Assembly: GCA_947628095.1 (NCBI GenBank)
Contig: CANQYO010000001.1
Coordinates: 1 to 57,724, forward strand
Direction of reading: 5' to 3'
Source of the DNA: an uncultured Bacilli bacterium
GTDB lineage: Bacteria; Bacillota_I; Bacilli_A; RF39; UBA660
Length of the DNA stretch: 57,724 bases
This document shows, one piece after another, positions 16,207 to 24,474 of the stretch. A program made the translations under genes and the position numbers. The first letter of the stretch is position 1, and each line of letters opens with the position of its first letter. The notes beneath the pieces are model-generated. The model was not told where the DNA came from and made no database searches. It was given only the letters and a program-made list of their open reading frames with translations.

Positions 16207-16401
16207 TTATTCCATTTCATTTGAATTATATTTGTCAGTTATATTATTTTGATTTTTATTGCATGTATCAGACTTAGAATTTAAATTATTATTAAATTCA
16301 TTACTTTCAAAACTACGACGAGAATTATTTATTTGATTTTTTGATTTATTTGTAGTTTTGTTTTGTTTGTTCATACTTTGACTTTTTTTCATTTTTATCA
16401 C
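16207..16401 (-). CDS. Hypothetical 64-aa Asn/Lys-rich protein (may be spurious)
   Basis: Low-complexity ORF abutting the dps-like stop with zero spacing; weak GGGTGA RBS. Confidence 0.25.
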   Translation of the reverse strand: MIKMKKSQSMNKQNKTTNKSKNQINNSRRSFESNEFNNNLNSKSDTCNKNQNNITDKYNSNEME

Positions 16402-16448
16402 CCATTTATAGTATGTCTAACATTTGTTTTTCTATAATTTTTTTTGAT

Positions 16449-16491
16449 TAACTTCCCCTATCAAAATTTGGATTTCAAAGAGGGGAAGTTA
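16449..16491. repeat. Perfect 11-bp inverted repeat (hairpin) in the terminus intergenic region
   Basis: taacttcccct (16449-16459) / aggggaagtta (16481-16491), 21-nt loop, not followed by a T-run on either strand. Confidence 0.6.
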
Positions 16492-16588
16492 TAAGGTATA
16501 AATATTAGTTAAAAGCTAAAAATATTAATATAAATTAAATTAATAAATTTTTAAATTTAAATTGAGTTGGATAATTATTCAATTTTTT

Positions 16589-16817
16589 AATTCTCGATTG
16601 CTTCTAGAGCATTTCAATTTATTTAGCAAAATAACCCAATCATTTTTAGATAAGCTTATTTGTAATTAAATGGATATTTATTCATTAAATTAAATCTCGA
16701 TTATCTACTAATCATATTTATAATCATATAATATAGATTATAGATAATTATAAAAGAAAATATATAATATAAAATTATAAATAAAGATTAAAAATAAATA
16801 ATCTTGATTTGCATCTA
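16589..16817 (+). repeat. Three spaced copies of an AATCTYGATT...TCTA motif
   Basis: aattctcgattgcttcta (16589-16606), aatctcgattatcta (16693-16707) and aatcttgatttgcatcta (16800-16817), spaced about 100-107 bp apart in a roughly 520-bp non-coding AT-rich tract. Confidence 0.45.
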
Positions 16818-16918
16818 ACAAATTTATATAATAGAAGTATATTAATTAATATATTTATATAAGAGTATTTATAGTATATGTAATATAGATTTTTTTATGA
16901 TAAAATTAAAAATATTTA

Positions 16919-16946
16919 ACTTTATATAATATATATTATGTTAAGT
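16919..16946 (+). other. dif: dif-like XerC/XerD recombination site (left prophage junction)
   Basis: ACTTTATATAA-TATATA-TTATGTTAAGT matches the recalled B. subtilis dif ACTTCCTAGAA-TATATA-TTATGTAAACT at 23/28. The arms are 9/11 inverted repeats of each other. It lies at the gene-strand switch. Confidence 0.75.
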
Positions 16947-17924
16947 TCTGTGTTTTCTGAATTCAAAATATTCTATATGATTATCTAGTTTATCATTATA
17001 CGTATTAAAAAAATCTACATCATATGATTTAAGTAATTCACTAAAATATAGTTTATCTCTATCACATGATAAATCAAGATAATCAACAAAAGGTTTGTTT
17101 AAATTATGTGAATAAAAATATCGACGTTTTCCAAAAAATTTATTATCGATATCTTTAGTCATATATTTAGATATATAACCTATAATTTTTCTTATATCAC
17201 CTTTAATAAAATCTACTCTTGTATAACCTTTATTCCAATATCGTACATCATAACATTTAGAACGTTCTAAATCAGTCATAGTTTTTAATTGTTCTTCAGT
17301 AAATTCTTTTTGTGGAAATATAACATCAGGTACATCTTCAATACTTATATTTGATAATACATGATAATGAATAGCATAAACACCATAACGACGTCCCCTA
17401 CTCTTTTGAATTTCAGGAACTGCTAAATATTTAAAATCTTTTTTAAGTTTACGAATATTACTAACCCAAGAATTAAATACTTTATTACAAGTAGGTATAT
17501 CTTCAATATCTAAAGTATCATTATCAGCAAATGTTAAAGTAATAAAAGTACCCCATTCACTTATATTTGATTTTGCTAATCTTTGACAATTAAACCGACT
17601 ACGACTAGCATTTAAATATGATATAGTTCTAAGTTCATTTTTAAACTTAGTTTTTGAAAGATTTTCAGTATCAAAATCTAATAATTTATTAATTCTAATT
17701 TCTCTATCTAAATTATCAAAATTTTTACTATCATTAAAACTATCACTATACTTAGTTGTAGCATTTTCATAATAATAAACTTGAATATAATCATTACAAT
17801 TGATAATCTTAACTGAATATTTTTCTAATCTATTTTGACACAATTTTGACATTTTATACTTAGATATGAGACTACTATCAAGTAATAGAGTCTCAATATC
17901 TTTCTTTACATTATCATTTGACAT
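16941..17924 (-). CDS. Rolling-circle replication initiator (HUH endonuclease), phage Rep
   Basis: 327 aa; RCR motif I FITLTF, motif II (HUH) HYHVL, motif III YISKYMTK. The stop codon lies inside the XerD arm of the dif-like site. Confidence 0.75.
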   Translation of the reverse strand: MSNDNVKKDIETLLLDSSLISKYKMSKLCQNRLEKYSVKIINCNDYIQVYYYENATTKYSDSFNDSKNFDNLDREIRINKLLDFDTENLSKTKFKNELRTISYLNASRSRFNCQRLAKSNISEWGTFITLTFADNDTLDIEDIPTCNKVFNSWVSNIRKLKKDFKYLAVPEIQKSRGRRYGVYAIHYHVLSNISIEDVPDVIFPQKEFTEEQLKTMTDLERSKCYDVRYWNKGYTRVDFIKGDIRKIIGYISKYMTKDIDNKFFGKRRYFYSHNLNKPFVDYLDLSCDRDKLYFSELLKSYDVDFFNTYNDKLDNHIEYFEFRKHRT

Positions 17925-17927
17925 AAA

Positions 17928-18200
17928 CTAACCTATATTAATAAATGGTATCTTCTTTAAAACCCACATTATTAATCGATAAGAATATTCAAATGTAATT
18001 AAAAATATAACATAAGGTGCTAATCTATTTATAGTACTAATTCTAACAAACATTGGTAATAAACCTAAATTTTGAAATATAACATCAAAAACATGACTAA
18101 CAGAACTTATAAAATCTGCCGGAAAAGATGCGGAAGGAAGTACTTCTATAATAGCATAAAAAGACAATAATATAGGAGATAATATAAACTCTAATAACAT
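17928..18200 (-). CDS. Phage small integral membrane protein (pVI-like minor coat candidate)
   Basis: 90 aa; 3 hydrophobic segments; start overlaps the stop of the upstream ORF. Confidence 0.45.
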   Translation of the reverse strand: MLLEFILSPILLSFYAIIEVLPSASFPADFISSVSHVFDVIFQNLGLLPMFVRISTINRLAPYVIFLITFEYSYRLIMWVLKKIPFINIG

Positions 18201-22728: not shown

Positions 22729-22997
22729 TTTCTAGAATACCACCAGGAAGAACATAAAAAAATGAGGTTTTCAGGGGGCGAACCTAAAAGTAGAACTCTT
22801 GAAAATTATTATAGAGATTATAGGTACAAACAATATATAAACAAAATATAAGAATTTTATAAGATATAGAATAATAAAATAATGAGAATTCAACCAATTT
22901 AAACGAAAAACTTCATTAATAAATAATTTTCAATTTAACCTCTTACTACTTAGTTTTGTCAAAGCGAATATACCGCCCCAACTAATTAAATTATATA

Positions 22998-23010
22998 GCG
23001 ATATTATCGC
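22998..23010. promoter_or_regulatory. Operator-like palindrome upstream of the XRE repressor gene
   Basis: GCGATA-T-TATCGC is a perfect 6+1+6 palindrome 55 nt upstream of the ATG at 23065. Confidence 0.4.
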
Positions 23011-23064
23011 CATGTCAAGCAAAAAAAATAAAAATATGAAATAATGTTTATGGGTGAACTTTAA

Positions 23065-23307
23065 ATGAAAATTAACAAAATAATAAAAACAATTAGAAAA
23101 AAGAAAAATTTAAGACAAGAAGATATAGCTAAAATAATAAATATAAATACAAGAACATACAGTGACTGGGAAAATGGCAATATTAAAAGAATTCCTTTTG
23201 AATATTTAGAAAAAATTGCCAATATTTGCGGTTATGAAATTATCTTTAAAGAAAAAAATGGAAATGATATTATTACTTCTAAAAATATAGATAGAAAAGA
23301 ATTATAA
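23065..23307 (+). CDS. XRE-family helix-turn-helix transcriptional regulator (phage repressor candidate)
   Basis: 80 aa; LRQEDIAKIININTRTYSDWENG fits the HTH_XRE pattern; divergent from the structural operon. Confidence 0.7.
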   Translation: MKINKIIKTIRKKKNLRQEDIAKIININTRTYSDWENGNIKRIPFEYLEKIANICGYEIIFKEKNGNDIITSKNIDRKEL

Positions 23308-23316
23308 AGGAGATAT

Positions 23317-23595
23317 ATGAATAAAGTATATAAAATAATACTTGATATTCTAATAACAATTGCCATATTAATAATACTAATATTAATAATTATAATTGGT
23401 TCAGGTTTAAAAAATAACTATTCATATGAAAGCAAAAACAATATAGAAAATAAATTAGAAGAATTGCTTGAAGAAGAACCACAGACACCACAAGAAATAG
23501 TAATAGAATTTTTAAAAGACAATTACAAATTTATAATAACAAATATATTATTAATAATAATTATAATTAAAATAGATAAACTTAAAAAAATATAG
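23317..23595 (+). CDS. Phage two-TM small membrane protein (paralog of 24083-24376)
   Basis: 92 aa; N- and C-terminal TM segments; central EPQTPQE motif shared with the 97-aa paralog. Confidence 0.5.
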   Translation: MNKVYKIILDILITIAILIILILIIIIGSGLKNNYSYESKNNIENKLEELLEEEPQTPQEIVIEFLKDNYKFIITNILLIIIIIKIDKLKKI

Positions 23596-23751
23596 GTTGT
23601 TTTACTTTTGTTAATTATATGCTCAAACAAAAAAATCAAGGGTTAAAATAAACTCGGAACTCGCCCTTGATTTTTTTTTATTTTTCGCATTTTATGGTAC
23701 TAACAAAACAACCCACTACCCTAACAACTATGATATTATGTAAACAAGTAT

Positions 23752-23779
23752 ATCTAATAAGATATATATTATGTTAAGT
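23752..23779 (+). other. Second dif-like site (right prophage junction, degenerate XerC arm)
   Basis: ATCTAATAAGA-TATATA-TTATGTTAAGT. The central region and XerD arm are identical to the site at 16919-16946. The XerC arm is only 6/11 inverted-repeat complementary to the XerD arm. Confidence 0.65.
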
Positions 23780-24450
23780 TCTATATTTTCTAAATATATT
23801 TTATTTGTTATTTATATCTATTTTATTATTAAAAATATTTTTTATTTAGTAATAATTTATTGTTACTCTTGTAATTACATTTTTGAAATATTGAATTGGT
23901 ATATTCTTTTAATACTTACACTTTATAAATCAATAATATATGGCATAAATGTCGTGTTCTTAAGATAACGTCCCCTACTCTTTATAATTTTAATAAATTT
24001 CTTTTAGTAAAATATTTTTTTAACTCTAGTCAAAAAATAGAAAATATGAGATAATAATTATAGAAAATATAAAGGAGAGAAAATGAATAAAGTAGTACAA
24101 GTAATACTTGCAACTTTAATTGCTTTTGCAATATTGTTGGCATTAATAGTAATAATCCATTTTGGAATGATTTTATTAGAAAATAATTCAAATGATTATC
24201 ATTATTTTGATAATATCAAAGATATTACATTAGGAGAATTATTTAGTGTAGAGCCACAAACACCTAAAGAAAAAATATTAAATTTTTTTAAAAAAAACTA
24301 TCAATTTATAATAACTGACATATTATTAATTATTGTTATCGTAAAAGTTAATAAATTAAAAAAAATTAAGAGTTAAAAATTTAAAATGAACTCTTATTTT
24401 TTGTATTATTTATATATATTAAAAAATATTAGAATAAATACCCTACTCTT
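23774..24450. pseudogene. Decayed remnant of a second phage copy (Rep 3' stub, repressor 3' stub, intact small membrane gene)
   Basis: 23774-23797 on the - strand reads IFRKYRT*, against EFRKHRT* at the Rep C-terminus. The RBS/start context ataaaggaga..ATGAATAAAGTA is conserved before 24083 and 23317. ccctactctt is repeated at 23973 and 24441. Confidence 0.5.
24083..24376 (+). CDS. Two-TM small membrane protein, paralog of the prophage gene 23317-23595
   Basis: 97 aa; shares MNKV, IAIL..LI.II, EPQTP and NY.FIIT.ILLII.I.K..KLKKI with the 92-aa protein; hairpin plus T-run follows. Confidence 0.55.
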   Translation: MNKVVQVILATLIAFAILLALIVIIHFGMILLENNSNDYHYFDNIKDITLGELFSVEPQTPKEKILNFFKKNYQFIITDILLIIVIVKVNKLKKIKS

Positions 24451-24474
24451 AAATATAAAAAAGTATTATCAAGA

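Follow-up and report, generated by a model that had tools for sequence, protein, structure and literature searches.

An inovirus-like prophage at the probable dif site and replication terminus of an uncultured Bacilli bacterium

Results

Organization of the locus

We analyzed a window of 57,724 nucleotides (nt), which is the whole of contig C1 (CANQYO010000001.1) in the genome assembly of an uncultured Bacilli bacterium of the RF39/UBA660 lineage (GCA_947628095.1; G000 below, with G, C and L numbers as our handles for genomes, contigs and loci). The assembly comprises 81 contigs with a total of 1.23 Mb and 25% G+C, and is 94% complete. The gene orientation converges on a switch at 16.2-24.5 kb, which carries a 28-bp candidate for the dif recombination site (16919-16946, plus strand), an inovirus-like prophage of about 6.8 kb without an integrase (16947-23751, minus strand), a second dif-like site (23752-23779, plus strand) and a decayed older phage copy (23780-24474, plus strand). 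An earlier note, made from the sequence of the window alone, had proposed a replication terminus here on the basis of a strand switch and a near-consensus dif. When open reading frames (ORFs) of at least 80 aa were counted, 12 lay on the plus strand and 2 on the minus strand before 16207, and all 33 after 24474 lay on the minus strand, short shadow ORFs within longer ones aside; the strand switch of the earlier note was thus reproduced. The long non-coding tract that it had placed at the switch was also found, as the longest ORF-free gap of the window (16402-16940).

The first site, which is also the left attachment site (attL) of the prophage, consists of the XerC arm ACTTTATATAA, the centre TATATA and the XerD arm TTATGTTAAGT. 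Its arms are inverted repeats at 9 of 11 positions, as the earlier note had stated, and the reverse-strand self-match showed four mismatches. The second is a hybrid right attachment site (attR), in which the phage-derived degenerate XerC arm ATCTAATAAGA, matching at 6 of 11 positions, is followed by TATATA and the XerD arm TTATGTTAAGT. The two sites differ at five positions, all in the left arm, and have the exact 21-nt direct repeat ATATATATTATGTTAAGTTCT in common; the start-to-start spacing of the repeats is 6833 nt.

A XerD-like tyrosine recombinase of 301 aa is encoded at 13663-14568 on the plus strand and is followed by deoB; the end of its ORF lies 2351 nt from dif. The protein scored 318.4 bits against the XerD model TIGR02225 and 308.5 bits against the XerC model TIGR02224, and it passed NF001399. 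Because both scores are slightly under the equivalog cut-offs, XerD-like is the safe name. The distance of 2.4 kb claimed earlier for xerD therefore held, and the gene name survived only in this weaker form, about 10 bits ahead of XerC. A XerC-like recombinase is encoded on contig C13 (322 bits for XerC against 298 for XerD), and the catalytic R, K, HxxR, H and Y residues are intact in both proteins. Contig C4, moreover, carries an FtsK gene whose 753-aa product includes a gamma domain. The genome contains three PF00589 genes in total, none of them inside 16947-23751. On the other side of the switch, the first gene of the right replichore encodes a 107-aa protein (p107; 24475-24798, minus strand) and is followed by p255, mnmA, p209 and rseP, all on the minus strand, with synteny in eight congeners.

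The 28-mer at the GC-skew maximum

The GC skew is about +0.2 to the left of the switch and between -0.2 and -0.4 to the right. As evident from the cumulative skew of C1, the maximum lies at 16952, 6 nt beyond the 28-mer, after a rise of 781 and before a fall of 2518 G-minus-C counts. Because the skew is strong, contigs longer than 6 kb could be judged singly: 53 of the 57 showed a monotone skew, a large interior maximum was present only on C1 and a large interior minimum only on C3 (27295). We found dnaA beside this minimum (C3:25833-26333), which identifies the C3 minimum as the origin and the C1 maximum as the terminus, with the correct polarity. After deletion of the phage, or of the phage and the remnant, in silico, the maximum was still within about 50-500 nt of dif. 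Small interior inflections were observed on C24 near 11452, where the cumulative skew falls by 566 and rises by 323, and on C29 near 12641, where it rises by 920 and falls by 156; these may be local inversions, islands or misjoins.

The gene order rarA-xerD-deoB-p148-[dif]-p107-p255-mnmA-p209-rseP recurs in independently assembled congeners. The order across the switch is shared by at least eight congeners, whether the phage is present or not, and the xerD-deoB-p148-dif synteny was present in all ten congeneric loci that were examined in detail.

The 28-mer matches the dif site of Bacillus subtilis, ACTTCCTAGAATATATATTATGTAAACT (Kono et al. 2011, PMC3025954), at 23 of 28 positions, which is the top match in the assembly; the count of the earlier note and the B. 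subtilis sequence behind it both proved correct against this source. In ten Markov-simulated genomes, the best match to the B. subtilis dif was 21-22 of 28, and none reached 23. The 28-mer is unique in the assembly, where the next-nearest sequence has six mismatches. Among 22 congeneric species, 18 contained the 28-mer with at most three mismatches, and a reversed control pattern gave no match; 17 of the 18 had one locus per genome, and G020 had a second site, with three mismatches, on another contig. The 28-mer and the following TCT are invariant or nearly so in the ten loci, and the neighbouring AT-rich intergenic DNA has diverged beyond alignment. The resulting genus consensus is ACTTYNTATAA-TATATA-TTATGTTAAGT-TCT, and more distant members of the class have ACTTCCTATAA-TATATA-TTATGTTAA[GC]T, which is nearer still to the B. 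subtilis dif. This conservation across congeners is far stronger evidence for dif than the match to B. subtilis. In summary, the site has the 11-6-11 layout, occurs as a single copy at the skew shift, is conserved relative to its flanks, and belongs to a genome with genes for XerC-like and XerD-like recombinases and FtsK.

Junctions of the prophage and the attachment site of the phage

Four congeners (G014, G001, G020 and G017) have an empty site, with one perfect dif 200-400 nt from p107, and a fifth, G003, has dif and the remnant only, with the intact phage absent. In G005 and G006, related prophages occupy the same site and are oriented alike. At the left junction, both have the genus dif beside the stop codon of the gene for the rolling-circle initiator (Rep), perfect in G005 and with one mismatch in G006, and their right junctions are TTCTTAAATAG-TATATA-TTATGTTAAGT in G005 and GTATCATAAAA-TATATA-TTATGTTAAGT in G006. 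Comparison of the right junctions of G000, G005 and G006 revealed that the central region and the XerD arm are always kept and that the left arm is always different and non-conserved. We also found the site on a free, circularly permuted contig (L082), where TTAATTTGCAA-TATATA-TTATGTTAAGT-tct lies 9 nt past Rep and runs uninterrupted into the helix-turn-helix (HTH) gene. This is the predicted phage attachment site (attP) in an episomal context, seen in a relative and not in this exact phage.

These comparisons also bear on the other claims of the earlier note and support them. The left site, which it had taken for the probable working dif, is identical to the site in the empty loci of relatives. 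The right site, which it had taken for a phage-derived hybrid, has a phage-specific, non-conserved XerC arm, as in the free phage contig. The only large interior skew maximum falls at the site, with the minimum at dnaA on C3; the assembly contains neither a second copy nor a stronger dif candidate, and the locus occurs at one site per genome in the genus. The skew and single-copy checks thus support the reading as a replication terminus.

A wider sample comprised 47 Rep-homologous loci from gut metagenome-assembled genomes labelled uncultured Bacilli, Tenericutes or Ca. Pelethosoma, and for 13 of these the contig included both junctions. In each of the 13, the end of the exact repeat lies 0-4 nt from a border of the central region. 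The central hexamer is identical at both junctions yet varies by host, the versions being TATATA, TCTATA, TGTATA, TTTATA and TCAATA. These repeat borders and the co-variation of the hexamer are the signature to be expected of Xer-mediated exchange and not of Rep-mediated insertion. The intact site lies at a plus-to-minus skew switch in 10 of 12 such loci. Phages with the unrelated Rep family PF01719 (L080 and L084) have a site of this kind in the corresponding position.

Two types of attP were present. Nine loci have the type of the window, which is XerD-armed, that is, the central region and the XerD arm are kept. Four prophage loci (L034, L039, L053 and L057) are XerC-armed, as are the circular L081 and L084, both with ACTTCCGATAA-TTGATA. 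The conserved arm adjoins Rep in both types. With the good arm next to Rep, prophage transcription would follow the direction of replication and the regenerated dif would lie between the replichores, which fits the loci at skew switches.

Taken together, the element encodes no recombinase of its own, lies at dif between dif-like direct repeats, one junction of which regenerates dif, and has free relatives with a dif-like attP. These are the features of an IMEX, an integrative mobile element that exploits Xer recombination. The dependence of integration on the host XerC and XerD is indirectly supported by the hexamer co-variation and the repeat borders.

Additionally, an extra XerD-arm-like half-site was observed at 23736-23746 in direct orientation, 22 nt before attR (TTATGTAAACA, matching the B. 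subtilis arm at 10 of 11 positions). A comparable partial arm, GTTAAGTTCT, immediately precedes attR in the G005 phage (L024, just upstream of the 2668-2695 site). Such half-sites may have been left by excision from tandem arrays or may form part of a composite attP.

Gene content of the prophage and its relatives

The Rep gene (16941-17924, minus strand; 327 aa) ends the prophage on the dif side, and its stop codon falls within the XerD arm of dif. The protein matched PF23343 REP_ORF2-G2P (1.6e-15) and phrog_3419 (1.2e-19). It is preceded by four ORFs of 90, 536, 221 and 47 aa (17928-20623, minus strand), which had no Pfam or PHROG match. Their order and sizes are the same in L081, L082, L084 and bajarodino virus 41, and to judge from their position they probably encode virion-tip, adsorption and membrane proteins. 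The next gene encodes a pI/Zot-like assembly ATPase of 251 aa (20613-21368, minus strand), with 20.1 bits against PF05707 Zot (cut-off 20.3) and matches at 1e-5 to 1e-8 to the PHROG pI/Zot families, described as M13 pI and Zot-like toxin. We found 2716 homologues of it, of which many are annotated with PF05707 and many come from contigs of 5-6.5 kb.

A protein of 68 aa (21842-22048, minus strand) has a hydrophobic helix followed by a basic tail, and its gene lies between p102/p106 and the Zot-like gene as in relatives; it is a putative major coat protein. The head of the operon consists of two overlapping ORFs of 106 and 102 aa (22073-22667, minus strand), which are 48-51% identical to those in G005, are kept in free contigs and had no family match; a role in single-stranded DNA (ssDNA) binding is possible. 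Divergent from this structural operon is a Cro/CI-type HTH regulator of 80 aa (23065-23307, plus strand; PF01381 HTH_3, 1.5e-13; PHROG repressor families). It is followed by an accessory gene beside attP for a two-helix membrane protein of 92 aa (p92; 23317-23595, plus strand), which is 54% identical to the 97-aa ORF of the remnant and does not occur in the relative L082. Several one-helix mini-ORFs also lie within the 6.8-kb insert. Pfam and PHROG scans of all ORFs in 16947-23751 revealed no integrase or transposase. As regards a factor like XafT, the phage ORFs gave no DUF3653 match and no other candidate besides the Cro/CI HTH protein.

The circular relatives have 6.0-6.4 kb, and L081 and L084 are circular with a 30-nt terminal overlap. 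In the GenBank phage collection, the nearest named phages were faecal Inoviridae with Rep identities of 25-36% and the same gene order, and the Rep search of that collection gave no close cultured relative. A search of IMG/VR with Rep returned a single match, L079, whose 21-nt terminal repeat is the att core. The group thus shows a small circular genome, a rolling-circle Rep, small hydrophobic, putatively coat-like proteins and the order typical of Inoviridae. We consider the element an inovirus-like phage, with a filamentous ssDNA virion predicted from its genes alone. The host encodes penicillin-binding proteins and Mur ligases, which makes this an inovirus-like phage of a walled, monoderm-type bacterium.

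We also observed that the phages L080, L084 and L085 have a pI/Zot-like ATPase about 70-75% identical to that of L081, L082 and the window, with the other structural genes in synteny. These phages use two unrelated initiators, PF23343 REP_ORF2-G2P or PF01719 Rep_OBD/RepB_C. The half-dif attP lies directly after whichever Rep is present, which is module exchange around a fixed attP position.

The decayed older copy and the DNA around dif

The segment 23780-24474 is a decayed phage copy and not chromosome. Over its first 60 nt it is similar to the Rep 3' end, and it further contains a Rep fragment at about 23968-23990 and an intact ORF for a 97-aa paralogue of p92 at 24083-24376. A repeat of 111 nt with 70% identity links 16896-17006 and 23729-23839, and the remnant and the p92 region align over 314 nt at 69% identity (54% between p92 and p97 in amino acids). 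In G003, the closest relative, the perfect dif is followed by a p97 homologue (L022 8394-8636) and no intact phage is present; this makes the remnant the older element, and the phage now in place entered the dif to the left of it. The sole surviving gene of the remnant encodes this 97-aa two-helix membrane protein, which is also beside dif in the phage-free G003. This suggests retention for the benefit of the host, for example by superinfection exclusion.

The tract to the left of dif (16402-16918) is AT-rich and contains no ORF, and a scan of 15700-24900 against Rfam at E values up to 1 gave no match. It has an 11-bp perfect hairpin at 16449-16491 and, at about 16560-16615, a conserved block of about 50 nt, ..GAT.AATA.TTATTCA....TTAA.TCTCGATTTGTTTTAGAACA. 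This block was present between p148 and dif in six congeners (L023-L028) and is single-copy in the genome of the window, where its orientation is reversed with respect to the hairpin and the small ORF nearby. Two more partial copies, AATCTYGATT, lie at 16693 and 16800, spaced by about 100 nt. The block may serve the small ORF at 16207-16401 as a leader or promoter, or may be a protein-binding site associated with the terminus.

In two congeners, a complete type II-A CRISPR-Cas system (Cas9, Cas1, Cas2 and Csn2) lies between p107 and dif: in G007 (L029 2419-9789) and in G002 (L030, about 10.6-20 kb, with the array at about 10570-15280 and the cas genes at 15359-20000). The arrays contain 19 and 41 repeats of GTTTTAGTTCTATGACGTTTTAAATGGTATTAAAAC and end about 210 nt from dif in G007. 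A comparison of 55 spacers from the G007 and G002 arrays against the phage of the window and every Rep locus gave short matches of 15-19 nt and one of 23 of 25 nt, and no convincing protospacer. No Cas9 match was present in the genome of the window. In this genus, accessory DNA has a hot spot on the XerD-arm side of dif. Additionally, G005 (L024/L032 336-1550) has a rarA-like gene and negative skew past the right end of its prophage, and not p107-p255-mnmA; its terminus region appears rearranged.

Discussion

The convergence of genes and skew, the conserved single-copy 28-mer and the junctions of the prophage make it highly probable that the replication terminus lies at the 16.2-24.5 kb switch, that 16919-16946 is its dif, and that an inovirus-like phage is integrated there as an IMEX. 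Several points weigh against this. The assembly, in 81 contigs at 94% completeness, is too fragmented to place the site opposite the origin, and a second dif may lie in unassembled DNA. A search for FtsK-orienting motifs, in which all contigs were oriented by skew and 7- and 8-mers ranked by strand bias, gave no candidate resembling KOPS or SRS; many purine-rich words are strand-skewed, such as AGATAGTG (57:0), and this is within what base composition and about 90% gene co-orientation account for. The distinction between XerD and XerC rests on about 10-24 bits, with both proteins just below the NCBIfam equivalog cut-offs, and the Zot score of the window's own protein is marginal, just under its cut-off. 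No third att site was found at the right end of the remnant, which makes its boundary near 24474 approximate. Finally, the case for recombination and integration comes from sequence comparison, and excision is hypothetical.

The genome is rich enough in A and T for TA-rich palindromes to be common, and simulated genomes came within one or two positions of the observed match to the B. subtilis dif. The 28-mer might accordingly be a chance near-palindrome or a mere phage attachment site, with the real dif, if any, elsewhere; this is highly improbable, since none of the simulated genomes reached 23 of 28, the skew maximum is 6 nt away, and the exact site occurs once per genome in phage-free species within diverged intergenic DNA. 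We likewise give hardly any weight to the notion that the strand and skew switch is a local artefact, from a contig chimeric at the phage DNA or a recent inversion, or that it is an origin. The switch does coincide with mobile DNA, a frequent spot for misjoins, and C24 and C29 show small inflections of their own, but the order from rarA to mnmA around dif recurs in at least eight independently assembled congeners with and without the phage. Moreover, a plus-then-minus polarity is that of a terminus, and dnaA is found on C3 at an inflection of the opposite kind.

It is also very unlikely that the working dif is the right site, or a lost site beyond the remnant, and that the left site is a crippled product. 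In some IMEX systems the functional site is regenerated on the other side, and the remnant records a history of arrays; against this, the left site has the genus consensus in both arms, the right XerC arm matches at only 6 of 11 positions and varies among G000, G005 and G006, the single perfect site of G003 lies to the left of the remnant, and no dif-like site lies to its right. Integration might instead be carried out by the HUH-type Rep or another phage function, for example through nicking of a dif-like origin. HUH endonucleases can catalyze site-specific strand transfer, and all relatives examined have attP at the Rep stop codon or within 10-400 nt of it. We nevertheless regard this as unlikely, because the repeats end at the borders of the central region, where Xer recombinases cut, and the hexamer of the phage tracks that of its host; the presence of a like site in the corresponding position in phages with the unrelated PF01719 Rep argues against Rep specificity.

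Under the reading as terminus, dif and Xer-dependent prophage, the following mechanism would apply. From established Xer biology, the XerC-like protein of C13 and the XerD-like protein would bind the 11-bp arms, exchange strands at the TATATA borders and resolve chromosome dimers, and the FtsK of C4, with its gamma domain, would position dif and may activate the reaction. The attP of the phage is, by comparison with its relatives, a half-dif, with a centre and XerD arm identical to those of the host and unrelated sequence in place of the XerC arm. Exchange within the central region would then create on the left a perfect dif, made of the host XerC arm and the phage XerD arm and abutting the Rep stop, and on the right a crippled hybrid of the phage pseudo-arm and the host XerD arm, whose poor XerC arm would be expected to lower excision. 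An earlier relative had integrated likewise and has decayed to 0.7 kb, leaving only a small membrane-protein gene.

The terminus and dif are ordinary. The dif-XerCD (CodV/RipX) system of B. subtilis and other Firmicutes has the same 28-bp 11-6-11 layout and the same TATATA centre, and it is alike in its two paralogous Xer recombinases and an FtsK-family translocase with a gamma domain. In B. subtilis, direct activation by SpoIIIE or SftA has not been demonstrated (PMC5357621). The location of dif at the GC-skew switch is also as in Kono et al. 2011 (PMC3025954). Unlike in B. subtilis, the XerC arm here is TA-rich (ACTTTATATAA against ACTTCCTAGAA) and xerD lies 2.4 kb from dif. The XerD arm TTATGTTAAGT is identical at 10 of 11 positions to TTATGTTAAAT, the XerD arm of Escherichia coli.

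As for the phage, attP sites of 17 bp that represent a left- or right-armed half-dif have been described in inoviruses of Vibrio and Pseudoalteromonas and in PM2-like double jelly-roll phages (Commun Biol 2025, PMC12715192). The window phage resembles these elements in having no integrase, an attP made of the centre and one conserved arm, a junction that regenerates canonical dif, tandem arrays or decayed copies at dif, and a repressor gene beside attP. It differs in its host, a monoderm low-GC gut Bacilli bacterium and not a gammaproteobacterium, and in its proteins, which are unrelated in sequence save for the Zot/pI fold and among which no homologue of XafT (DUF3653) was detected.

In TLCphi and the gonococcal genetic island, the XerC arm and central region are conserved and the XerD arm is degenerate (PMC4246890, PMC5357621). 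Integration at dif via a site without one bona fide arm and with full identity of the central region is common to these elements and ours, and their layout is exactly that of the XerC-armed relatives (L034, L039, L053, L057, L081 and L084). The window phage is the mirror image of TLCphi, with the XerD arm kept and the XerC arm lost, and no XafT-like activator was found in it. A TLCphi-type IMEX was ruled out for this phage by the lost XerC arm and the lack of a DUF3653 match. Like CTXphi and VGJphi, it is a predicted filamentous phage with a rolling-circle Rep, here with a putative Zot-like pI, and with no integrase, located at dif. A hairpin attP of the CTXphi type was rejected, as the XerD arm is present only at the two junctions with no inverted partner inside the element, and the VGJphi type was ruled out because the XerC arm matches at 6 of 11 positions and the whole central region is identical to that of the host.

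The bajarodino and Dulem viruses, which are faecal Inoviridae, are circular with 5-7 kb and have the order Zot, small ORFs, a large adsorption-like ORF, an ORF of about 90 aa and Rep; their similarity in sequence is distant only (Rep 25-36% identical), and their hosts and integration behaviour are not on record. In bajarodino virus 41 (L083, PQ006142.1, a published circular genome from rodent faeces), we observed AAACATATTAT-ACAACA-TTATGTAAACT at 3976-4003, oriented likewise and some 90 nt beyond Rep; its right arm TTATGTAAACT is exactly the XerD arm of B. subtilis. Possibly, this is a half-dif attP that has gone unrecognised.

Since half-dif attPs of either arm have already been described in Vibrio and Pseudoalteromonas, the kind of element is known, and it is the host group that lacks a precedent we could find. 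Our search of the literature on IMEX, inoviruses or dif in Firmicutes, RF39 and Gram-positives found no report of an IMEX in Bacilli, and dif and Xer are not discussed in the main text of Roux et al. 2019. Membership of the phage among IMEXs, in such a host group, is well supported. More tentatively, and with considerable reserve, we propose that it may belong to the first documented IMEX family in Bacillota, in which widespread inovirus-like phages of uncultured gut Bacilli with small genomes would carry a half-dif attP right after Rep, in two mirror-image versions and with no XafT-like activator. In this family the geometry would always be Rep, good arm, centre and junk arm, so that transcription of the prophage follows the direction of replication and the replichores are always separated by a regenerated intact dif.

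The finding would fix the terminus and dif for a fragmented assembly of an uncultured bacterium, and the genus dif consensus helps to order contigs and to mark prophage borders that prediction software may miss. In this genus, the DNA adjacent to dif holds intact or decayed phages in some species and type II-A CRISPR-Cas9 in others. The hijacking of Xer by filamentous phages would extend from Proteobacteria to monoderm gut Bacilli. If the proposed family is real, the Xer system would be recruitable via either recombinase alone, and it would become directly testable how strand exchange is ordered and controlled in an Xer system of the Firmicute type. The natural series of attPs, with either arm, several hexamers and two unrelated Rep families, could show which recombinase initiates the exchange.

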